Part shown: positions 1 to 13,472 of the stretch, piece by piece | How positions within the stretch are numbered: position 1 is the first letter of the stretch | How the letters are laid out: the number at the start of each line of letters is the position of its first letter | Source: Centroscyllium fabricii | Taxonomy: Eukaryota | Assembly: GCA_051313645.2 (NCBI GenBank) | Contig: JBNRSN020000194.1 | Location: forward strand, 310,001 to 374,000 | Length of the DNA stretch: 64,000 nucleotides | Direction: 5' to 3' | Notes under the pieces: generated by a model | The model's input: the letters and a program-made list of their open reading frames with translations, nothing else | The model's database searches: none | Told to the model about the DNA's origin: nothing | Made by a program: the position numbers and the translations under genes

Positions 1-3000
1 CGACTGAGAATACTCGCAACACCCACCCCTGACTGAGAATACTCGGAGCCCTCGCTCCTGACTGAGAATAATGGGAGCACACACCCCTTACTGAGAATGC
101 CTGGATGACACACCCGTGACTGAGAATACTCCGTGCACCCGTCCCTGACTGAGAATACTCGGAACACTCGCCCCTGACAGAGAATACTCGGGGCACTCGC
201 CCCTTACTCAGAATAATCAGAGCACCCGCCCCGACTGAGAATACTTGGAGCACCCACCCATGACTGAGAATAGTCGGGGCACTCGCCCCTGACTCAGAAT
301 ATTCAGAGCACCCGCCCCTGACTGAGAATACTGAGAGCACCCGCCCCTGACTGAGAATACTCAGAGCACCTGCCCCTGTCTGAGAATACTCAGAGCACCC
401 ACCCCTGACTGAGTATACTGAGAGCACCCGCCCCTGACTGAGAATACTTGGAGAAACCTCCCCTGACTGAGAATACTCGGAGCACCCGACCCTGACATAG
501 AATAATCGGAGCACCCGCCCCTGACTGAGAATACTCGGAGTACACGCCCCTGACTGATACTACTCGGAGCACCCGCCCCTTACTCAGAATTACATTGGCA
601 CCCGGCGTGACTGAGAATACTCGGAGCTCCCACCCCTGACTGAGTATACTCAGAGCACCCGCCCCTGACTGAGAATACTCGGAGCTCCCGCCACTGACTG
701 AGTATACTCAGAGCGCTCCGCCCCTGACTGAGAATACTCGGAGAACCCACCCCTGACGGAGAATACTTGGAGCACCAGCCCCTGACTGAGAATATTCGGA
801 GCACTCGCCCCTGACTGTTGATACTGAGAGCACCCGAACCTGACTGAGGATACTCAGAGCACCCACCCCTGACTGAGAATACGGAGAGCACCCGCACCTG
901 CCTGAGATTACTGAGAGCACATGCCCATGACTGAGAATAATGAGAGCACCCGCCCCTGACTGAGAATACTGAGAGCACCCGCCCCTGACTGAGAATACTG
1001 TGAGCAACCGCCCCTGACTGAGAATACTCGGAGCACACGCCCCTAACTGAGAATACTGAGAGCACCAGCCCCTGACCTGAGAATACTGAGAGCACCCGCC
1101 CCAGCCTGAGAATACTCCGTACACCTACCCCTGACTGAGAATACTCGGTGCACCCGCCACTGACTGAGAATTTTCGGAGCACCCGCCCCTGACTCAGATT
1201 AATCGGAGCACACACAATCATGACTGAGAATACTCGGAGCACTCACCCCTGACTGAGAATACTGGGAGCACACACCCCTTGCTGAGAATGCTCGGATCAC
1301 ACACCCGTGACTGAGAATATTGGAGCACCCGTCCCTGACTGAGAATACTCGGAGCACTCGCCTCTGAAAGAGAATACTCGGGGCACTCGCCCCTGACTCA
1401 GAATAATCAGAGCACTCGCCCCTGACTGAGAACACTCGGAGCTCCCGCCCCTGACTGAGAATACTGAGAGCACAAGCCCCTGACTGAGAATATTGAGAGC
1501 ACCCGCCCCTGACTGAGAATACCCGGAGCACCCACCCCTGATTGAGAATAGTGAGAGCACCCGCCCCTGACTGAGAATACTCGGAGTACCCGCCCCTGAC
1601 TGAGAATACTCGGACCACCCGCCCCTGACTGAGAATGGTTGGAGCACCCGCACCTGACAGAGAATACTCGGAGTACCCGCCCCTGACTGAGAATACTCGG
1701 AGTACCAACCACTGACTGAGAATTCTCAGAGCACTCGCCCCTGACTGAAAATACTCGGAGTACACGCCCCTGACTGAGAATACTCGGAGTACCTGCCCCT
1801 GACTGAGAATACTCGGCGCGCCCGCCCCTGACTGAGAATACTCAATGCACCCGCCCCTGACTGAGGATACAGAGTGCACCCGCCCCTGACTGAGAATACT
1901 CGGAGCACCTGCCCCTGAATGAGAATACTCGGAGTTCCCGCCCCTGACTGAGAATACTCGGAGTACCCACCACTGACTGAGAATAATCAGAGCACTCGCC
2001 CATGACTGAAAATTCTCGGTGTACACTCGCTTGACTGAGAAAATTCGGAGTACCTGCCCCTGACTGAGAATACTCAATGCACCCGCACCTGAATGAGGAT
2101 ACTGAGAGCAACCGCCACTGACTGAGAATACTCGGAGCACCTGCCCCGAATGAGAATAATCGGAGCACCCGCCCCTGACTGAGAATACTCAAAGCACCCA
2201 CCTCTGTCTGAGAATACTGTGAGTACCCGCCTCTGACTGAGAATACTCGGGGCACCCGCCCCTGACTGAGAATATTCAAAGCACCCGACAGTGACTAAGG
2301 ATACTGAGAACAACCGCCCCTGACTGAGAATACTTGGAGTTCCCGCCCCTAACTAAGGATACTAGGAGCACCAGCCCCTGACTGAGAATACTCGGAGCAC
2401 CCACCCCTGACTGAGAATACTCGGAGCACCTGCCACTGACTGAGAATACTGAGAGCACCAGCCCCTGACTGAGATTACTCGGAGCACCCGTCCCTGACTG
2501 AGAATACTGAGAGAACACACCCCTGACTGAGAATACTCAGAGAACCCGCCCCTGACTGAGAATACTCAGAACACCACCCCGCTGACTGAGAATACTGAGA
2601 GCACCCGCCCCTGACTGAGAATACTCGGAGCACCAGCCTCTGACTGAGAATATTTGGAGTACCCGCTGTTGACTGAGAATACTCGGAGCACCCGCCCCTG
2701 ACTGAGTATATTCAGAGCACCCACACCTGACTGAGAATACTCGGAGTACCCGCCCCTGACTAAGAATTCTCATGGCACCCGTTCCTGACTGAGAATACTA
2801 GGACTACCCGCCCCTGACTGAGAATACTCAGAGCACCTGCCCCTGACTGAGAATACTAGGAGCACCCGTCCCTGACTGAGAATACTCGGAGCACCCGCCT
2901 CTGACAGAGAATATTAGGAGCACCTGCCCCTGACTGAGAATACTGAGAGCACCCGACACTGACTGAGAATACTCGGAGCTCCCGCCCCTGACTCAGAATA

Positions 3001-3384
3001 CTTGGAGTACCCGCCCCTGACAGAGAATACTCGGAGCTCCCGCCCCTGTCTGAGAATACTTGGAGCACACACCCCTGACTGAGAATACTCGCAGCACACA
3101 CCCCTGACTGAGAATACTTGGGTCACCCGCCCCTGACTGAGAATATTCAGAGCACCTGCCACTGACTGAGAATACTTGGAGCACCCGTCCCTGACTGAGA
3201 ATATTCGGAGCACCCACCCCTGACTGATAATACTTGGAGCACCCGCCCCTGACTGAGAATACTTGGAGTTCCCGCCCCTGATTGAGAATATTCGGAGCAC
3301 CCACCCCTGACTGAGAATACTGAGAGTAACCGCCCCTGACTGAGGATACTGAGAGCACCCGCCCCTGACTGAGAATACTCAGAG
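1..3384. repeat. 29-bp tandem satellite array, left of the proviral insertion
   Basis: Continuous head-to-tail monomers of consensus CCCGCCCCTGACTGAGAATACTCGGAGCA (29 nt), usually with a few substitutions each. No unique spacers. Confidence 0.98.
3381..3384 (+). repeat. Target-site duplication, left copy (AGAG)
   Basis: ...GAGAATACTC AGAG|TGTAAGG. Removing the element and one AGAG restores the satellite sequence seen intact at 20083-20086 and 15791-15794. Confidence 0.93.
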
Positions 3385-3471
3385 TGTAAGGTCGCAATAT
3401 TCCCTGTTAAATTAGATCCACAAAGACAAGAAACGAAGGATGGAGTATACACATTTTATTTTATTTGGACA

Positions 3472-3795
3472 ATGGCAGACAAGACAGGCTGCGGCCTGAT
3501 CAGAGAAAAGGGGCCTCCAAGATGGCCGCCGGACCACATGGCACAGTACAAACCGAAACCAAAAACCCAACTCGAAAAGCCCGCGAAGAAACCAGACATA
3601 AAGGCACTGTTAAACCTGGAAATAAATAGCCTGCCTTTTAGAGGCCGATTAGCCCGACAAAGAAATGCACCCAGTTTAAATAATCACCCAAAACAACTGC
3701 AGAAACGAAGCAGCTGGTCCGTTCAGCCAGCTACAGAAATTGTATACCCTTCCAGCAGAAAGCGATTAGCACCCTTGAAAACAAAGGGGCTCTAA
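3472..3795 (+). CDS. Possible U3-encoded basic protein (107 aa), hypothetical
   Basis: Kozak ACAATGG; K/R/P-rich; no recognisable homology. Truncated in the 3' LTR by CGA>TGA at 11983. Confidence 0.2.
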   Translation: MADKTGCGLIREKGPPRWPPDHMAQYKPKPKTQLEKPAKKPDIKALLNLEINSLPFRGRLARQRNAPSLNNHPKQLQKRSSWSVQPATEIVYPSSRKRLAPLKTKGL

Positions 3796-3923
3796 CCTGA
3801 GAAGTTAGAGCCGCCATCAAACTATTACCGGCAGGCTTGGCTAGACAAAAGGGGTGCTATAACCGCTTTCCACACACAATACAGGCTCTAATGGGAAAGA
3901 CATTAGGCAGTTCGACTTTGGGG

Positions 3924-3944
3924 TATAACTGGTAGGACTTTATA
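3924..3944 (+). promoter_or_regulatory. Candidate LTR TATA-like boxes
   Basis: GGGTATAACT (TATAAC 3924-3929) and CTTTATACAG (3939-3944). Motif match only. Confidence 0.4.
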
Positions 3945-4059
3945 CAGTTCGCTCTCTTGAAAAATCTCTTCATCTCGGACTCCCTGGAGGAGGGGGGTTT
4001 GAATCTCTGGTAATAGAATCTCTTGGAAAGCGGTTGGAAATTCTTCTCTTATGACTTAG

Positions 4060-4149
4060 GACTCGTGGAGGCGACCTCTTGAAGCGGTGAGGTCTCTCTT
4101 GGCTCTTGGAATCGACTCGTGGAGGCGACCTCTTGAAGCGGTGAGGTCT
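4060..4149 (+). repeat. 36-bp direct repeat in the LTR, each copy with an internal hairpin
   Basis: GACTCGTGGAGGCGACCTCTTGAAGCGGTGAGGTCT at 4060-4095 and 4114-4149, with GACCTC/GAGGTC arms. Also present in the 3' LTR. Confidence 0.9.
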
Positions 4150-5013
4150 AGCAGTGACTTTGGGTGGGCTGTCTTTCTCGAAGACTCCAGTTCAGCTTTC
4201 TGGGCGCAGGGCAAGCAGGGTGAAGGCTCTGGCAGGACAGCAGAGTTGGGTCAGGGCAGTATCGCATCAGAAAACCATTGCCGGTGAGGTAGTTAGTTGC
4301 TGAGGCCCATTAGCGAAGCAAAAGTGAGTGAGTTAGAACAAGACTGGTTGCCGTTGGCTCGAGAGAAACCATCATTCAAAGAGTGGGAGAACAATTAGGC
4401 TAGCAGCCCGTTACAGTTCGGCTTGAGAGGGCAGGATCGGCATACCCCAGGGTCCGGTTCAGCCAGGGAGACGGTGTGGTTGGTGCGAGGAGATCGAGCA
4501 GCCTCGAGGAATCCGTCCGGGACCAGCCCGAGCAGGAGCGACCGCCGCCAAAAGGGAGAAAACAACGAGTGGACTCCCGAATCTTCCACAGCCACGTGAC
4601 GACCGACGCTGCAGCCGAAGAAACGAAGGACTTCGTAGCAGAACCCGAGTATTACCGAGTGGTGAGCATGTGCATTGATCCTACACACCTGGACATAGCT
4701 AGGCAATAGAGGGAAGGGTGGTTCGTTTGGGGTGTAATTTTAGAGTCATTGCCCCGATTTACGATGTGTCGTGCGTTCCCCATCCTATGAGTTGTTTGTG
4801 TATGTGCATATGTATATATATCTATTTGGGAACAATTGTTGGTGTTCCATACTGTGTTGACCCGAGAAAATACAACCTAACTGCTGTAGATATATCTCTT
4901 GGTGTAATAAACCGTTATCCTTGCTGCTGTAAATATATCTCTTGGTGTAATAAAAACCTTCCAACTTTACAAACTTTTATTCGAGTCAATAGTCTGAGTC
5001 CAATCGGCATCCA

Positions 5014-5034
5014 TCTCTCTCTCTCTCTCTCTCT
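5014..5034 (+). repeat. (TC)n microsatellite / polypyrimidine tract in the LTR
   Basis: 21-nt alternating TC run, the same length in both LTRs (13291-13311). Confidence 0.9.
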
Positions 5035-5193
5035 TCCTGCACCTAAGTCCAGCGTCTAGAACCGTAAAGAGTGAGCGATTCGAACCGCTCGCGGGGGAGG
5101 AGGTTATTGCGCGAGGCCTAGCGGACTGCTAGCGCAAGGCAGTAACGGACCCCAAGTCGTACAGTAAAATATACGGCGCACGCTCCTTACAGA

Positions 5194-7116
5194 ATGGCGA
5201 CCACAGCAGGACGCTGGCAGCAGGAGAGAGATCTATTGGACTCAGCGTTGAATAAAAGAAGCGTAATGGAGGAAAGGATTGCCAACTATGTATTTAGTAA
5301 AGTAAACCTAACAAAGCAGTGGATTGGGGACCTGTTGGCAGACAAAGGCCCACTGGATGCAGCTATCCGTTGGACGGGTAGCAAGGGGCATAAAAAGGCC
5401 GTAGAGAAAGCCGTATGGCTTATGTGTTATAAAAGACAGGTCCAGCTTTCGGACCAGGTGATTGCGGAGCAGACCGCGCAGATAAAAGGGTTGGTTTTAG
5501 AAGTGGAGGAAAAGGTCTCAGGGGGGCAGCGGTTAATCACCGCGCTAGAGGCTCTAAATAATGAGCGCCAGGTGAAGACCAACCGCCACGAAGCTAGGGT
5601 TGAGCTCCTAGAGAGACAAGTCGTAGAGGCCATGTCAAGTGAAGGGAAGCTCAGGGAAAGCTGCGTCCGCCTAAGTGGCCAATTGAAGGCACAGGAGGAG
5701 GATTTACTGGGGATGAGGGCAGCTTACAAAATGTCCCTCGAGGCCAAATATGAGGACGCCGATCATAGCGCCTGTTTAAAGGAGATTCATGACCTCAGGG
5801 AGGCCCTGAACAAGTCAAATGGTCTGGTGTGCCTCATCGACCCATCGGTGGGTGAGGTAAAGGTAGCTCAGGAACCCCCGAAGCCAAAGTTAAGGAGGAG
5901 GGCGCCGGAGGCACCAGCCCCCGCGCTCCCCGCGCGATCACCCCACTATACGCAAGCATGGGAGAAAGGGGACAAAGAGGAGGTGGCGGCAAATGTTCCC
6001 AAAGTGGGGAATCCAGACCCGGCACCCATGTGTCCGGTTCGAGAGATGAGGCGGGGTCCCGACACTGAGGCTGGGGATCCCGGGCCCGTCCTGAATGAGG
6101 TTATAGTGCCCCATAGCTCGCAACAGATAAGGAGCATGATAGGGCATTTCAAGAAGCTGTCCGCAGCAGGCGATCCGTCCCTGCATTTTAGGGAGGTCGA
6201 ACAGGCCGCAGCAATTAACGGCTGTGACGAAGGGGAGCAAGCCAGGATGTTGCTTTTTTCGTTGGATAGCTCTATTCTTCAGTGTCTCTCCGACGAGAGC
6301 AAAAGGGGGGAGAATTGTTATAACGACCTGCGGGACGAGGTCCTAGAAATATTAGGGATGGACGATGAAGGTCCGTTTGTAAGGCTGGGTAGGACCGTGC
6401 AGATGGAGGGAGAACCCCCACGGGTTTTCGCCGGGAGGCTGTGGCCTGTGTATCAGCGCAGCTGCCCAGATGTACCTGCACGGGCTGTTTTGCGCGATGC
6501 CGGGAGAGCCCAGTGGCTCCGGTGTATCGTTGCCAACAGCCTACCCGCCGTTAGAGAGCAGGCGAAGGTGTGGTTTGACACCACCGATGCTCTAACCACA
6601 GAGGAGACGGTCCTCAACCGACTCACGGTTGGGTATAAAAATACCAGAAGTTCGGTGATGCATTGCGATAAGGGGAAGGTGTATGCGACTAACGCAAACG
6701 CCCCAGCGCAGAGAGAGTGGTATCAGGAGGGGGGCAACCCGGGGCAGTCTACATGTCATAGATGCGGGAAGGCAGGCCACTGGCGCAGAGACTGTAGAGC
6801 CCCGTGGAGGGAGGTCAAGGAAAGAGCTCCCGCAGCCCCAGCCCGAGCACCCACTCCCACAGGAGGTGCCGGCGCCACTCTAAGTCCCGAAACAATTGAG
6901 TCCATGCTGGAAGCCATGAAGTTTTATATGACTTCCCAGGGGAAGGTAGCCCCAACCCGAGCACCCGCTCCCACAGGAGGTGCCGGGGCAACCTTAAGTC
7001 CCGAGACGATTGAGTCCACGCTGGGGGCCATGAAGTTGTATATGGCTTCCCAGGGGAAGGCAGCGGTGGCCACCGGTTCCGCAGGCACCGCAGCCCCTCA
7101 CGAGGAAACCCAATGA
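5194..7116 (+). CDS. gag: Gag polyprotein (640 aa): N-terminal coiled coil, Pro-rich linker, capsid-like region, single CCHC zinc knuckle, duplicated C-terminal 38-aa unit
   Basis: Intact ORF directly after the LTR with strong Kozak context (AGAATGG). CHRCGKAGHWRRDC knuckle at 6754-6795. Confidence 0.93.
   Translation: MATTAGRWQQERDLLDSALNKRSVMEERIANYVFSKVNLTKQWIGDLLADKGPLDAAIRWTGSKGHKKAVEKAVWLMCYKRQVQLSDQVIAEQTAQIKGLVLEVEEKVSGGQRLITALEALNNERQVKTNRHEARVELLERQVVEAMSSEGKLRESCVRLSGQLKAQEEDLLGMRAAYKMSLEAKYEDADHSACLKEIHDLREALNKSNGLVCLIDPSVGEVKVAQEPPKPKLRRRAPEAPAPALPARSPHYTQAWEKGDKEEVAANVPKVGNPDPAPMCPVREMRRGPDTEAGDPGPVLNEVIVPHSSQQIRSMIGHFKKLSAAGDPSLHFREVEQAAAINGCDEGEQARMLLFSLDSSILQCLSDESKRGENCYNDLRDEVLEILGMDDEGPFVRLGRTVQMEGEPPRVFAGRLWPVYQRSCPDVPARAVLRDAGRAQWLRCIVANSLPAVREQAKVWFDTTDALTTEETVLNRLTVGYKNTRSSVMHCDKGKVYATNANAPAQREWYQEGGNPGQSTCHRCGKAGHWRRDCRAPWREVKERAPAAPARAPTPTGGAGATLSPETIESMLEAMKFYMTSQGKVAPTRAPAPTGGAGATLSPETIESTLGAMKLYMASQGKAAVATGSAGTAAPHEETQ
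5195..5212 (+). promoter_or_regulatory. Primer-binding site, probably tRNA-Arg(UCG)
   Basis: TGGCGACCACAGCAGGAC lies 3 nt after the 5' LTR. It begins with TGG (complement of CCA) and resembles the complement of vertebrate tRNA-Arg(UCG) 3' ends as recalled. The tRNA identity needs checking. Confidence 0.8.
6842..7064 (+). repeat. Tandem 114-bp-period (38 aa) duplication at the gag 3' end
   Basis: RAPTPTGGAGATLSPETIESMLEAMKFYMTSQGK / RAPAPTGGAGATLSPETIESTLGAMKLYMASQGK. Confidence 0.92.
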
Positions 7117-7119
7117 CTA
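7111..7119 (+). promoter_or_regulatory. Candidate gag-pol stop-codon readthrough site CAA-UGA-CUA
   Basis: gag and pol share a frame and are separated only by TGA at 7114-7116. The 3' context CUA is a known leaky-UGA context. Confidence 0.75.
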
Positions 7120-10100
7120 AGACCCGCGCTGCCCATTTACCTGTGCCCACTCCGTTACGATGCATGGAGGAGACCTCTGGTGGAAATGGAGGTGGAGAGA
7201 CAGGAGGGGAATTATCTGTTGGATACGGGGGCCTCATGCACCGTGATCCATACAGAGAAGCCGTTTAATTCCCCAATGTCCACCGGAGTCCCTTTTGCAT
7301 TAGCAGGGTTTACGGGCAAGGAACAGGGGGGCGCGCGCTCTAGGCCACTCTCCATTCAGTTAGGAGCGCTCCACACCACTTGGGAGTGCATCTTGCTGAA
7401 ATGGGAAGAAGGAGGTGGCAGAGGTATAGTAGGAGCAGATTTTCTGGGAGCACACGGGATCATGATCGACTTAAGGAACCACTGTTTATGGGCAGCCGAA
7501 AGTGGAAGAGGTGAAGTTGTGGTCATAGGGGAGGAAGAAGAGAAGGGGACCCTATGCACCATGAAGCCGTCCGGAGGTTACGACCTCGATAGTCTGTCCA
7601 AGGGGGTTCCGGCCGACATGCAGGCGGCCGTAACGTGGAATATAAACGCCTTTGCGACCCACAAGCACGATTGCGGGAGGGTCTTAGGGTTTGAGGTTAG
7701 CGTACAGGGGGATCCCATGTCCCGACCCCAGAAACAGTATAACTTCCCTAAGGAAGCGGAGTCCGATCTGGAGACAGCGATGTCTTCACTGGTGCGGCAG
7801 GGCGTGTTGAGGCCGATAGCCACCCATGTGAACTCTCCGTTGTGGCCCGTACGGAAGCCAGACAACTCATGGAGAGCCACGGTGGATTATCGGGTCCTCA
7901 ACAGTAACATCCCTGCCTGCGCACCCACGGTGGCAGCAGTTGCCGACCTGATCGGGAGTATTCCCGCTTCCGCCACGGTGTTTACGGTGTTGGATATTTC
8001 CAACGGGTTTTGGTCCATCCCGCTGCGGAGGGAGGATCAGTACAAGTTTGCCTTTACGTTTAAAGGGCAGCAGTACACGTGGAATTGTTTGCCGCAAGGC
8101 TTCCACAACAGCCCCAGTATTTTCCACCAGTGCATGGCAGGGAGTTTAAAGGAGTTTAGTCAGCCCAGTCAGATAGTGCAGTACGTGGACGACTTACTCC
8201 TGTTCACAGACACAAGGGATGAGCACTTGCCATTGCTAGGCGAGCTGCTGGAATTACTGGCTAGGAAGGGTTTTAAAATAAACCCGAAGAAGGCACGGAT
8301 TGGCCAGACAGAAGTAAAGTTTCTGGGTCTGACCATCCGCGCGGGGGAAAGGGCCATAGATAAGGTCCGAAGGGAGTCGGTACAGGAGCTACCGATCCCG
8401 ACCACCGTAAAGGGTGTGAGGTCCTTTTTGGGATTGACCGGCTATTGCAGAGACTTCATAGAGGACTATGCAGCCACAGCAGCTCCGCTGCTCCGACTCT
8501 TACATAAGGGAGTTGGGTGGTCATGGGATGAGGGCTGCCAGGCGGCGTTTGAAAAGTTGAAAAGGGACTTGCAAACCGCGCCAGCCCTGGGGGCCATAGA
8601 GGGGGGGAAGGAGTTTTCCCTGGAGGTAGCAGCCGGCGAGGACAGCTTGAGCGCGGTGCTGCTCCAAGAGCGGCACGGCAAGCTGCGACCGGTGGTGTAT
8701 TCCTCAAGGGTACTCACGGAGGTAGAGAGGGGGTTCTCCAACTGCGAACGGCATCTCTTAGCCACGCATTGGGCCGTGAAGAGATCATTAATCTTCACGG
8801 GAACCTCTCCCATTACTCTCCTCACCCACCACACGCCCACCAGGATGCTTCTGGATGGGAGGATAAAGGATGGGACCGTGAGCAGCGCGAGAATTGCGCG
8901 CTGGACTCTTCTGTTGTCCCAAATGGATTTAAAAGTGGAGGGTTTGTGCGAGCCTAAGCTCGCAGCAAATTTGATGTACCCCGGAACGACCCATCGGTGT
9001 TCCGTGGAGGGGGTATGGGAGGTGAACATAGGTCTGCGAGCCGGGATACATCCCACGGGCCGCGAGATCTATGTTGATGGTTCCAGCACGGTGGTGGCTG
9101 GCGAACGACTCACGGGCTGCGGGATTTTTGACCCTACGGCAGACATTGCCTTGGCGGTTAAGCTTCCCCGCACCATGAGCGCGCAGCAGGCCGAGCTGTC
9201 GGCGGTGGCGTACGTGGTAACCCACCCCGAGATCTTCCCAACCCCGTACACAATTTGCTCTGATAGTATGTTTACGTGCAACTCGTGCACAGAGTATCTG
9301 GCCATATGGTCACGTCGCGGGTACACTTCCACGGACGGGCGGCCATTAACGGTAAAGCCCTTGTTGGAGAAGATCCTAGCGGCAGTAGGGGAAGAAGGGG
9401 AGATCTTCATCCACAAGGTGAAGGCTCACTCTTCCACGGAACCACGTGGGGGAGGCAATCAGCGGGCGGATGCGCTGGCCAAGGAGGGTGCTCGTGAAGG
9501 CACTTTCTGGGACCCCTACGGGTCCGGACCTGTGGCAGCGATCCGGGACAAGGAGGGGAACCGCCCCAGGGTTCCCCTGCCTTTGGATCTCAAAACGGTC
9601 CAAAACCAGGATCCCGTTTTAAAAGCTGTCCTCAAAGCTATTAGTGAGGACAAGCAGGTAGAGGGCCCATACAATAGGGCGACCCTCTCCGTTAAGGAGG
9701 GTATGTTATTCAGGGAGGAACAGTGGGTTGTGCCGCAGCAGCACAGGAGGGAATTTCTCCAATTGGCCCACGAGGGTCCAGGAGCAGGGCACCCCGGGCC
9801 AGAGGTTACGTGGCAACGGGTGGATATAAACCAATGTAAAATGTATAAGTCGGGCACGCAGGGGTCGACCACAGGGGCAAGCCCTGTGAGTAGGAACGCC
9901 CAGCCAAGTGCAGGACCACAGGTCGCACAGGCAGGCAAAGTAGCCTGCGTGAAAGGAGAGGCCCCGATGGAGGAGAGGAGGGTCTCTCGTGCTGTGTGGG
10001 ATTCGGATGGGGAGGAGCCGGACCAACACGACCAAGTGTTGGATCTGATGGACCAACACGACCAAGTGTTGGATCCGAGTGGCCAACCCGACCAAGGGTT

Positions 10101-10824
10101 GGACCTGATTGACCTATGCGACCCAGTGCTAGAGTCAATCACAGGGGAGGAGGAGGGGTCGGAGGACGGGGGTTCCGTTCTCGACTCGAATGCCGACGAG
10201 GTAGGGATAGCGGGCGGAGACTCACCACCTGAGGAGATAGGTGAGGTGAGGTCAGAAGCCGCAAGAGATCCCAGTCCCGGGGAAGCGAAGCTGAAGGAGG
10301 GAGGGTCGGTGCTGGCAGCTGTGAAGGAGTCACAGGCTGCAGCACGATCCGGCCCGGCCTTCAGTTCGTCGACGAGGCGAGAGGAGGGAGCGTCGATGCT
10401 GACAGATGTGACGGGGTCACAGGCTGTAGCACGACCTGGCCCGGTCCTCAGGTCGTCGACCCAGGGGGCTCTCGGTTCCAGGGAAGCGAAGCTGGAGGGA
10501 GAGGGGTTGGTGCTGGCAGCTGTGAGGGAGTCACAGGCTGCAGCACAACCTGGCTCGGTCCTCAGTTCGTCGGCCCAGGGAGCAGTACCTAAAGGCACCC
10601 TCCGTCGATCGGAAAGGGTACCCCCGCCCAGGAAAGCTTGGCCAGAACCGTCATATGCCCTCAGGAACAGGAAAAGCCCCCGCAAAAGGATAATTATCCA
10701 CCCCCGACAAGCAGCACCAGGCTGCGGAGAATTAAAAGCAGCGACAGGCTGCGGGGAACCAAAGGGAAGGGTCAGCAAGGCACCGCCATGGGGAGCGGCC
10801 CACTACGACCCTGACAGGGGATAG
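7117..10824 (+). CDS. pol: Pol polyprotein: aspartic protease, reverse transcriptase, degenerate RNase H tether, RNase H, internally deleted integrase with long low-complexity tail
   Basis: Open from 7117. PR: WRRPLV..LLDTGAS (D 7222), IVGADFL. RT: YVDD at 8182-8193. Tether: ~8520-8930. RNase H: YVDGS (D 9076), AELSA, SDS, HS, GNQRAD (D 9469). IN zinc-finger His at 9769 and 9790, but no CxxC and no DDE core. Confidence 0.93.
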   Translation, partial: LRPALPIYLCPLRYDAWRRPLVEMEVERQEGNYLLDTGASCTVIHTEKPFNSPMSTGVPFALAGFTGKEQGGARSRPLSIQLGALHTTWECILLKWEEGGGRGIVGADFLGAHGIMIDLRNHCLWAAESGRGEVVVIGEEEEKGTLCTMKPSGGYDLDSLSKGVPADMQAAVTWNINAFATHKHDCGRVLGFEVSVQGDPMSRPQKQYNFPKEAESDLETAMSSLVRQGVLRPIATHVNSPLWPVRKPDNSWRATVDYRVLNSNIPACAPTVAAVADLIGSIPASATVFTVLDISNGFWSIPLRREDQYKFAFTFKGQQYTWNCLPQGFHNSPSIFHQCMAGSLKEFSQPSQIVQYVDDLLLFTDTRDEHLPLLGELLELLARKGFKINPKKARIGQTEVKFLGLTIRAGERAIDKVRRESVQELPIPTTVKGVRSFLGLTGYCRDFIEDYAATAAPLLRLLHKGVGWSWDEGCQAAFEKLKRDLQTAPALGAIEGGKEFSLEVAAGEDSLSAVLLQERHGKLRPVVYSSRVLTEVERGFSNCERHLLATHWAVKRSLIFTGTSPITLLTHHTPTRMLLDGRIKDGTVSSARIARWTLLLSQMDLKVEGLCEPKLAANLMYPGTTHRCSVEGVWEVNIGLRAGIHPTGREIYVDGSSTVVAGERLTGCGIFDPTADIALAVKLPRTMSAQQAELSAVAYVVTHPEIFPTPYTICSDSMFTCNSCTEYLAIWSRRGYTSTDGRPLTVKPLLEKILAAVGEEGEIFIHKVKAHSSTEPRGGGNQRADALAKEGAREGTFWDPYGSGPVAAIRDKEGNRPRVPLPLDLKTVQNQDPVLKAVLKAISEDKQVEGPYNRATLSVKEGMLFREEQWVVPQQHRREFLQLAHEGPGAGHPGPEVTWQRVDINQCKMYKSGTQGSTTGASPVSRNAQPSAGPQVAQAGKVACVKGEAPMEERRVSRAVWDSDGEEPDQHDQVLDLMDQHDQVLDPSGQPDQGLDLIDLCDPVLESITGEEEGSEDGGSVLDSNADEVGIAGGDSPPEEIGEVRSEAARDPSPGEAKLKEGGSVLAAVKESQAAARSGPAFSSSTRREEGASMLTDVTGSQAVARPGPVLRSSTQGALGSREAKLEGEGLVLAAVRESQAAAQPGSVLSSSAQGAVPKGTLRRSERVPPPRKAWPEPSYALRNRKSPRKRIIIHPRQAAPGCGELKAATGCGEPKGRVSKAPPWGAAHYDPDRG
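10021..10580 (+). repeat. Coding repeats in the Pol C-terminal tail
   Basis: Four 30-bp units (DQHDQVLDLM-like) at 10021-10140 and three ~30-aa units (VLAAVKESQAAARSGP-like) at ~10281-10580. Confidence 0.85.
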
Positions 10825-11649
10825 GTAGGCCGCCCGGGAGAGGCGGCACTGTATATAATGAAGAAAAATAAGTTTGGTAGTGTCAAGGGAGTAGCCCGAA
10901 TTAAGTTTCAATTTTGTTAAAGGTAAAGGGGAGTGTTTAGGTAATATGGGATCTGTCCAGGAGGCGTGCACATCTCACCACAGCCAGGCGCTCTTGGGAG
11001 GCCGGCAACCCCTTTGTTTGATTACAGAACCCAGAGAGGCGGGGATTCTGATGACGTGTGCGGGCATCAAAGATGGACTGGCCTGCCGGGGCCACACCGG
11101 GGAGTAAGGACGGCTGGGAATGGACCCAATGGAGCATCCCAGCACGTCGGAATCTGCTTGTGGAGAGACTTGGTTTTATGTGCCCCGGATCAAGACCATC
11201 GCACCCAGGACCGGCGCCATCATCGGTAAAAGGACTTACTTCCGTTAAGGGATAGGAAGATCCCAGCGAGCCGATGGTGGTGGCTGCAGAAGACCGCCAG
11301 AACACTGTACGGACTTTGGGACAAATGGGGGGATTGGTGAAGGGAAATGTGTGTGTTTATATGTTCCGGATGGTTGTGTGATGTCTTTCAAGTTAATAAA
11401 TGATGTGAACAGGTGGAGACGAAGGCATCGGCCTGGCAGACGTGGAAGGAACCAGGAGGTGTAAGCCATGGTTGTGTAAATATACGATTGCCCAGGGTAA
11501 AGGCAATGCGAGGTTGATCAAAGGGAATGGGAACCGCATGTGTCATGGGGCAAGAGTTAATTTAGGTAACCAGGAGAGTTGAGGTGTGGAGAATCGGGAA
11601 TCTTGCTCAACCTTTCTTAATTGATTCGCTAAGCAGGGTTATGCTAATC

Positions 11650-11661
11650 AACAGGAGGGAC
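11650..11661 (+). promoter_or_regulatory. Polypurine tract (short)
   Basis: AACAGGAGGGAC immediately before the TG of the 3' LTR. Confidence 0.7.
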
Positions 11662-13468
11662 TGTAAGGTCGCAATATTCCCTGTTAAATTAGATCCACAA
11701 AGACAAGAAACGAAGGATGGAGTATACACATTTTATTTTATTTGGACAATGGCAGACAAGACAGGCTGCGGCCTGATCAGAGAAAAGGGGCCTCCAAGAT
11801 GGCCGCCGGACCACATGGCACAGTACAAACCGAAACCAAAAACCCAACTCGAAAAGCCCGCGAAGAAACCAGACATAAAGGCGCTGTTAAACCTGGAAAT
11901 AAATAGCCTGCCTTTTAGAGGCCGATTAGCCCGACAAAGAAATGCACCCAGTTTAAATAATCACCCAAAACAACTGCAGAAATGAAGCAGCTGGTCCGTT
12001 CAGCCAGCTACAGAAATTGTATACCCTTCCAGCAGAAAGCGATTAGCACCCTTGAAAACAAAGGGGCTCTAACCTGAGAAGTTAGAGCCGCCATCAAACT
12101 ATTACCGGCAGGCTTGGCTAGACAAAAGGGGTGCTATAACCGCTTTCCACACACAATACAGGCTCTAATGGGAAAGACATTAGGCAGTTCGACTTTGGGG
12201 TATAACTGGTAGGACTTTATACAGTTCGCTCTCTTGAAAAATCTCTTCATCTCGGACTCCCTGGAGGAGGGGGGTTTGAATCTCTGGTAATAGAATCTCT
12301 TGGAAAGCGGTTGGAAACTCTTCTCTTATGACTTAGGACTCGTGGAGGCGACCTCTTGAAGCGGTGAGGTCTCTCTTGGCTCTTGGAATCGACTCGTGGA
12401 GGCGACCTCTTGAAGCGGTGAGGTCTAGCAGTGACTTTGGGTGGGCTGTCTTTCTCGAAGACTCCAGTTCAGCTTTCTGGGCGCAGGGCAAGCAGGGTGA
12501 AGGCTCTGGCAGGACAGCAGAGTTGGGTCAGGGCAGTATCGCATCGGAAAACCATTGCCGGTGAGGTAGTTAGTTGCTGAGGCCCATTAGCGAAGCAAAA
12601 GTGAGTGAGTTAGAACAAGACTGGTTGCCGTTGGCTCGAGAGAAACCATCATTCAAAGAGTGGGAGAACAATTAGGCTAGCAGCCCGTTACAGTTCGGCT
12701 TGAGAGGGCAGGATCGGCATACCCCAGGGTCCGGTTCAGCCAGGGAGACGGTGTGGTTGGTGCGAGGAGATCGAGCAGCCTCGAGGAATCCGTCCGGGAC
12801 CAGCCCGAGCAGGAGCGACCACCGCCCAAAGGGAGAAAACAACGAGTGGACTCCCGAATCTTCCACAGCCACGTGACGACCGACGCTGCAGCCGAAGAAA
12901 CGAAGGACTTCGTAGCAGAACCCGAGTATTACCGAGTGGTGAGCATGTGCATTGATCCTACACACCTGGACATAGCTAGGCAATAGAGGGAAGGGTGGTT
13001 CATTTGGGGTGTAATTTTAGAGTCATTGCCCCGATTTACGATGTGTCGTGCGTTCCCCATCCTATGAGTTGTTTGTGTATGTGCATATGTATATATATCT
13101 ATTTGGGAACAATTGTTGGTGTTCCATACTGTGTTGACCTGAGAAAATACAACCTAACTGCTGTAGATATATCTCTTGGTGTAATAAACCGTTATCCTTG
13201 CTGCTGTAAATATATCTCTTGGTGTAATAAAAACCTTCCAACTTTAAAAACTTTTATTCGAGTCAATAGTCTGAGTCCAATCGGCATCCATCTCTCTCTC
13301 TCTCTCTCTCTTCCTGCACCTAAGTCCAGCGTCTAGAACCGTAAAGAGTGAGCGATTCGAACCGCTCGCGGGGGAGGAGGTTATTGCGCGAGGCCTAGCG
13401 GACTGCTAGCGCAAGGCAGTAACGGACCCCAAGTCGTACAGTAAAATATACGGCGCACGCTCCTTACA
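11662..13468 (+). repeat. 3' LTR (1,807 bp)
   Basis: Direct copy of 3385-5191. About 9 substitutions found by eye and no indels seen. Confidence 0.97.
13183..13231 (+). terminator. Tandem polyadenylation signals in the 3' LTR (5' LTR copies at 4906 and 4949)
   Basis: AATAAA at 13183 and 13226. Each ends one copy of a duplicated 31-bp unit CTGCTGTARATATATCTCTTGGTGTAATAAA. Confidence 0.65.
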
Positions 13469-13472
13469 AGAG
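13469..13472 (+). repeat. Target-site duplication, right copy (AGAG)
   Basis: CCTTACA|AGAG TACCCGCCCC. Confidence 0.93.

Follow-up and report, generated by a model that had tools for sequence, protein, structure and literature searches.

How can a provirus that encodes no integrase catalytic core belong to a family that has inserted recently and at many sites? The question is raised by a 64,000-nt stretch of the genome of Centroscyllium fabricii (GenBank assembly GCA_051313645.2, contig JBNRSN020000194.1, positions 310,001 to 374,000 of the forward strand; this whole stretch is called the window below). It carries a provirus at nt 3385–13468, all features of which lie on the plus strand. The element is bounded by a pair of long terminal repeats (LTRs; nt 3385–5191 and 11662–13468) of 1807 bp, which differ by 9 mismatches and no gaps, and by an AGAG target-site duplication (nt 3381–3384 and 13469–13472), with a 29-bp satellite on both sides. 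A previous reading made from the letters alone (the sequence-only reading) had described a young provirus inside a satellite array; the location was borne out by these features and the youth by the LTRs, those of sibling copies being nearer still to identity. It overlooked, however, that the window Pol retains half of the H2C2 zinc finger of integrase and no rve catalytic core (Pfam). Measured by that core the window copy is not autonomous; rve is present in the Pol of a sister family (family B) and in integrase-bearing siblings of the same family (family A). The provirus probably belongs to a young endogenous retrovirus (ERV) family of high copy number and is a copy that lacks env and has its integrase deleted; such a copy would make Gag and readthrough Gag-Pol, reverse transcribe its own RNA and borrow the integrase of intact siblings packaged in the same particle.

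Comparison with siblings placed the integrase remnant at nt 9730–9840 and the deletion junction at 9824/9825. Siblings about 99% identical to the window copy carry 933 extra bases at this point (9/10 measured; one copy, 98.8%), so that the deletion is in frame and removes 311 codons, covering the second half of the zinc finger, the catalytic core and most of the C-terminal domain. A relative of 85% identity also has the integrase core, and its integrase used as query gave at least 150 matches in the 7.2-Gb genome of the window. The exact 25-base deletion junction occurs 699 times genome-wide, and two versions of the integrase-bearing junction give 2155 and 1552 matches (3707 together). The best 10 of 40 listed integrase-less matches were all colinear with the window copy, with 0–3 LTR mismatches and 4-bp duplications of their own. 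The LTR-pair divergence was 0.0015 per site in 12 position-picked integrase-less copies that retain the reverse transcriptase (RT) and 0.0011 in 26 gag-only copies, nine of these 38 having identical pairs. At 0.005 the window copy is among the oldest; a mammalian rate would make it about 1 My old, the shark rate that PMC4422223 assumes 11 My. Target duplications of 4 bp and varied sequence flank 37 of the 39 family copies in which both ends are visible. Insertions that are dispersed and have precise ends presuppose an integrase; since the deleted copies encode none, we infer that it is likely supplied to them in trans by intact siblings.

It is scarcely credible that the deleted copies multiplied without integrase, whether by gene conversion or by duplication of the satellite or of larger segments, or that they are artefacts of assembly. 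The window copy does lie in a satellite and a few tandem runs occur among the matches, but the loci are dispersed, have different flanks and carry the private 4-bp duplications (37/39), and none of 90 other family loci, a sample mostly from large contigs, is found in this 29-bp satellite. Two public sequencing runs, X4 and X5, also have contigs with the joint of a second, RT-removing deletion described below, the short sides measuring 30 and 29 letters. Taken together, this evidence largely refutes both alternatives. The contigs that cross the integrase junction (runs X2, X4 and X5) are 58–60 nt long and fall short of the 31-letter bridging rule. Targeting of the satellite as an insertion preference was rejected on the same count of 90 loci, for that sample rather than genome-wide, and the satellite location of the window copy looks incidental.

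The second deletion divides the family further. A stretch of 2037 bp that the window copy keeps (nt 7341–9377) is missing, again in frame, from RT-less and gag-only copies, and the resulting junction has 1614 exact matches. The deletion was present in 8 of 20 position-picked integrase-less copies on contig C1 and in 2 of 20 integrase-bearing copies. The integrase deletion, in turn, was found in 21 of 24 RT-deletion loci examined (the first 25 plus-strand matches minus one tandem neighbour). Twenty of these were copies drawn for the junction, 19 of them with the integrase deletion, mostly accompanied by nearby substitutions that hide it from the exact pattern; the other four came from the earlier samples, two being integrase-less and two integrase-bearing. 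The classes are roughly estimated, from exact patterns in an assembly that may contain duplicated haplotypes, at 3500 full copies, 450 integrase-less but RT-positive copies (the window class), 1400 gag-only copies and 200 RT-less, integrase-bearing copies. All four combinations of the two deletion markers, which lie 447 bp apart, were found, and the deletion classes are intermixed in trees of flanking segments; together these point to recombination between co-packaged RNAs. Splicing was rejected as the origin of the deletions, the skipped stretches having no GT-AG ends. The RT deletion (7340/9378; loci L062–L122) sits at a CTAG repeat, with one base more missing than in a clean microhomology join, and leaves the frame open.

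Does a copy without integrase still use the proteins it encodes? The gag gene (nt 5194–7116) specifies 640 aa from an ATG. Its stop codon is a UGA with CUA behind it, and pol (nt 7117–10824; 1235 codons without a stop) continues in the same frame. In 56 of 62 family copies no in-frame stop precedes this UGA-CUA, and readthrough at this site is predicted. The same hexanucleotide is the alphavirus-type readthrough context, and snakehead retrovirus (SnRV) reads through a UAG (PMC13517186). Family B has UGA-CAA at the corresponding position. Among variants shared by at least two copies, the ratio of nonsynonymous to synonymous change (omega) for RT is 0.10 among integrase-less copies and 0.13 among full ones, and for gag it is 0.15–0.19, singleton variants lying nearer to neutrality. 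In a comparison with only 27 full copies, the RT variants private to the integrase-less class were 3 nonsynonymous and 12 synonymous (p=1e-4), which favours continued use by this class of its own RT. Full-length Gag is kept in 21 of 23 integrase-less copies, 25 of 27 gag-only copies and 8 of 9 copies of the remaining main class.

These data also bear on the possibility, which we consider a minor but genuine one, that the integrase-less copies travel as passive cargo, as mouse ETn elements or cattle D-type copies do: their open reading frames (ORFs) would be intact through youth and recombination, and all proteins would come from helpers. The copies are indeed very young, but the private RT variants, the in-frame nature of both deletions and the retention of full-length Gag in the two deleted classes speak against mere carriage. 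Several results nevertheless weigh against our own explanation. In gag-only copies the non-enzymatic RNase H/integrase remnant is as strongly biased as RT (1 nonsynonymous to 8 synonymous), so a low omega among shared variants is no specific sign of enzyme use, and recombination may have imported much of the signal; 40 of the 55 shared RT variants of the integrase-less class occur in full copies as well. Both results fit passive cargo. The gag variants private to gag-only copies (2 nonsynonymous to 3 synonymous, p=0.16) are uninformative, protein production and readthrough are deduced from the nucleotide sequence, and an env-bearing A-type master may exist elsewhere in the genome.

On the explanation preferred here, a helper-dependent family using its own RT, family A would long since have turned into a lineage that lives inside the cell in the manner of a retrotransposon (the dS of its RT-RNase H from family B is 0.95) and reached about 20 times the count of family B. 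The 933-bp integrase deletion and the 2037-bp RT deletion are each found at hundreds of loci, which are dispersed and have target duplications of their own. RNAs of the different classes would be packaged together and recombine, with missing enzymes provided in trans, and the mostly synonymous RT variation suggests that the Gag and RT of the integrase-less class may still aid their own RNA (cis preference).

Helper-dependent swarms of this kind are known. Mouse IAP I-delta-1, ETn/MusD, the D-type copies of cattle ERVK[2-1-LTR] and recKoRV are likewise internally deleted subfamilies amplified by trans-complementation, along with co-packaging and four-haplotype recombination; mouse IAP I-delta-1 keeps a translated Gag-Pol fusion that acts in cis (PMC7411935 and PMC10924933). 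The shark family differs from these mammalian systems in having a class that lacks integrase only and whose RT looks selected, in two nested in-frame deletions that assort into four classes, and in being a class III-like element of a cartilaginous fish. Its gag-only copies resemble the MaLR elements (MaLR/ERV-L). What appears to be new is the RT-positive class without integrase only, the four-class assortment and, possibly, an envelope of the paramyxovirus fusion protein (F) type outside lokiretroviruses (Loki) and foamy viruses. Narrow searches of the open literature returned no description of an integrase-less RT-positive class, of a four-class assortment, or of an F-type env in snakehead-related retroviruses. 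One genome thus holds a whole retroviral decay series at near-zero age, from env-bearing copies (about 180 matches) through env-less autonomous (about 3700) and integrase-less RT-positive copies to gag-only ones. In a non-mammal, then, sequence alone can be used to test cis preference, trans-complementation and the parasite-of-parasite model.

To which lineage does the family belong? The sequence-only reading had proposed a lokiretrovirus- or spuma-related element near the boundary between retrotransposons and retroviruses, with a double RNase H among its features. The domains it described are present. Within pol, the protease (DTG) lies at nt 7216–7236 and RT at about nt 7735–8530 (RVT_1, E 4e-35; YVDD at nt 8182–8193), with the quoted RT motifs as stated. 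They are followed by a Ty3-type RNase H-like tether at about nt 8524–8922 (PF17917/PF17919) with VAAG in place of TDAS, and by a second, intact RNase H at about nt 9064–9492 (PF00075, E 3e-19; D654, E693, D716, H771 and D785). The 3' part of pol holds the integrase remnant and then a low-complexity tail. Retroviruses normally have a tether together with a new RNase H (PMC9040795 and PMC7947760); both domains are there, as had been said, but as a normal feature of all retroviruses they are not diagnostic of Loki. What that reading stressed, the dual RNase H and the position in a satellite, is ordinary.

An RT tree was built from 49 rows, a subset of 104, labelled by motif and source names and anchored by P0164 and P0309, which match the SnRV and the Loki-Lro row of PMC7947760. 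The window RT falls inside the canonical retroviruses and is split from Loki and Ty3/gypsy at 100/98. Its nearest relatives are frog and coelacanth elements annotated as NYNRIN-like or Gypsy integrase-like (50–53% identity), followed by SnRV (46% over 262 aa) and Loki (33–40%). Forced grouping with Loki was rejected by an approximately unbiased (AU) test (p=0.017; 28 rows, quick tree). Window, SnRV and foamy RTs share LPQG(F), and the Loki rows in the supplement of PMC7947760 have a PFG or PFGY-type motif. Membership in Loki was rejected on the RT branch, the AU test and the missing PFG motif, and, with RT inside the canonical retroviruses, a boundary lineage is not supported. An ordinary Ty3/gypsy element, an outcome that the sequence-only reading had itself named as fatal to its proposal, is not what was found either, given the dual RNase H and an RT outside Ty3/gypsy.

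A Loki or Loki/Odin-grade origin is accordingly very improbable, although it does draw on more than the dual RNase H. The tether scores 46–77 bits against 8 Loki rows and only 32 against SnRV (27–28 against gamma-like rows), and the sibling integrase scores 216–224 against Loki and 125 against SnRV. The env of the sister family also has an RXKR site and F-like features of the kind described for Loki. Such closeness of tether and integrase suggests retained ancestral character, and the integrase and RNase H trees, which are poorly resolved at depth, do not join the window group to Loki. Placement of family A in class III/clade Huo (as defined in PMC6001957 and PMC4977317), related to snakehead retroviruses, is likely. 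In the tree SnRV falls in the same basal grade as family A but is not its sister, a place next to SnRV has no support, and the basal forks are open; with no foamy or named ERV-L/S row among the 49, these points weaken the placement, which is thus likely rather than demonstrated.

The comparison with SnRV and SnRV-like ERVs (clade Huo of Xu et al. 2018, PMC6001957; elephant-shark CmiERV lineage I, PMC4422223) is mixed. Of the viruses named in the tree, SnRV is the one with the highest RT identity; it has an in-frame gag-pol stop (UAG rather than UGA-CUA; PMC13517186) and an aquatic host. It differs in lacking a supported sister relation and in an LTR of 518 bp (PMC12193657) against 1.8 kb here; family A has a Gag ATG that overlaps the primer-binding site (PBS), no accessory ORFs that could be seen, and a tether and integrase much more like those of Loki. 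As to Loki and Odin themselves (PMC7947760 and PMC9040795), the well-preserved tether of the dual RNase H and the similar integrase are shared, as would be, in family B only and judging from language-model features, an RXKR-cleaved, apparently F-type env. The RT outside the Loki clade, the secondary loss of env in family A and the absence of a visible smc gene set the family apart. Its RT motifs are also foamy-like: phmmer matched the window RT to 7ksf (foamy) at E 7e-62, with a stronger match to murine leukaemia virus RT (E 6e-69), and a hand count against the simian foamy virus row of a supplement gave about 36% identity over 132 aa. Foamy viruses make a 4-bp target duplication, as seen here. 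They have a Gag without CCHC, a Pol that is not made by readthrough, a tRNA-Lys PBS and accessory genes. Family A departs from these Spumaretrovirinae traits in its CCHC Gag, its predicted readthrough-type in-frame junction, its tRNA-Arg PBS and its lack of accessory genes. The CCHC knuckle, single and already noted in the sequence-only reading, lies at nt 6754–6795 (PF00098). SnRV, too, would be primed by tRNA-Arg, the PBS type found here.

Was the lineage, which the sequence-only reading called env-less, always without env? The window copy has no env ORF, and none was found in the 10 top and 20 position-picked integrase-bearing family A copies. Family B (177 exact matches) supplies the contrast. 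Its pol is 79% identical to that of family A at the nucleotide level and its RT-RNase H 89% at the amino acid level (dN 0.06, dS 0.95), and the two families have in common their LTR ends, polypurine tract, in-frame UGA, tRNA-Arg PBS type and 4-bp duplications. It also carries a third, env-like ORF of about 841 codons (837–863). Ten loci were selected because their integrase was intact, and in 8 of them this ORF has no interruption. The non-coding spacer of the window copy (nt 10825–11649) aligned with the start of this ORF, scoring higher than every shuffle (protein score 64, maximum of 200 shuffles 49; DNA score 81, maximum of 100 shuffles 39), and with the 3' untranslated region of family B. 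It thus holds a decayed remnant of both, within nt 10825–11661, and family A lost env secondarily. The description as env-less stands for the copy; a primitively env-less lineage was ruled out by the remnant, and the env gene expected of canonical Retroviridae is present in the lineage as the env-like ORF of family B.

The family B env-like protein has an RQKR motif followed by about 404 residues to a transmembrane helix, and no CX6CC. Features from a protein language model (ESM) for residues 300–780 gave Baculo_F 0.92 and Fusion_gly 0.91, scores that are uncalibrated for partial proteins; a whole-protein ESM search returned only one unnamed cluster (0.84). Pfam and PDB sequence searches gave no match, and two AlphaFold2 models of the ectodomain were of low confidence (predicted local distance difference test scores of 34 and 31). 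A paramyxovirus-F-type env is thus a lead, not a result, and the language-model features are what suggest it. Loki Env is F-like by sequence (PF00523-type fusion glycoprotein; PMC7947760) and foamy Env is so structurally (PMC11468914). Were the sister env of this type, it would bear on the origin of env in Loki and in canonical retroviruses: two independent gains, as in scenario I of PMC9040795, or descent from one ancestral F-type env. A wider interpretation, attractive but in our estimate somewhat short of an even chance, is that a basal canonical-retrovirus lineage carries in family B an F-type env like those of Loki and foamy viruses, which would make this the likely ancestral retroviral Env. 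Its env-less sister would then be a consortium of recombining copies (RT-only, integrase-bearing and gag-only) that selection keeps complementing one another. Homologues of the env-like protein were found only in a skate and a sawshark, which points to a cartilaginous fish as host. Two sawshark gene models (P0149 and P0150; Niban 1-like and cadherin-related) contain env-like pieces and are either annotation chimeras or exonised ERV. The chimeric locus L037 (C711:160535000-160544999) has an A-type pol with integrase joined to a B-type gag end, behind which come a pol of B type and an env-like ORF; families A and B can recombine or nest.

The remaining features concern priming, the LTRs and the surroundings. 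The PBS (nt 5195–5212) is of the tRNA-Arg(UCG) type in families A and B alike, and in the window 2 of its 18 positions depart from the sequence commonest in the family. The family sequence has matches at 91 tRNA-like 3' ends in the genome; ARAGORN, run on three of them, called one tRNA-Arg(tcg) and one tRNA without assigned identity, and made no call for the third. Large clusters of tRNA-Arg-like 3' ends occur at C811:22.5-25.4 Mb and C922:4.0-7.9 Mb, many about 1.9 kb apart. The Gag ATG, in strong context, lies 2 nt past the LTR and overlaps the PBS, so that nt 5192–5212 leave no leader between PBS and gag; in family B the ATG is 4 nt past the LTR. To our knowledge, this leaderless arrangement is unusual for retroviruses. 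The polypurine tract (AACAGGAGGG plus AC, nt 11650–11661) is identical in family B. The 5' LTR runs from TGTAAG to CTTACA, with AATAAA at nt 4906 and 4949. Across copies (the window LTR and loci L001–L122) LTR length lies between about 1550 and 1900 bp, with the pair inside any one copy nearly identical; the LTRs are mosaics and diverge faster than the coding region. Head-to-tail proviral runs that share LTRs were seen at C1:238514672-238539494, C113:94240984-94271203 and locus L021, with spacings of about 8266, 6039 and 10708 bp.

The 29-bp satellite occupies nt 2–3384 on the left of the provirus and nt 13470–64000 on the right (about 1744 units there), with about 82% identity between units. 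It fills at least 54 kb, the rest of the window around the element. A 114-bp tandem repeat lies at the C-terminus of Gag (nt 6832–7064), and a three-copy form, giving a Gag of 678 aa, is common in RT-less copies. The Pol tail contains LRRSER and YALRNR motifs (nt 10600–10671) and is in frame in every deletion class, without a signal of selection; the motifs resemble nucleosome-binding arginine anchors and the chromatin-binding motif of foamy Gag.

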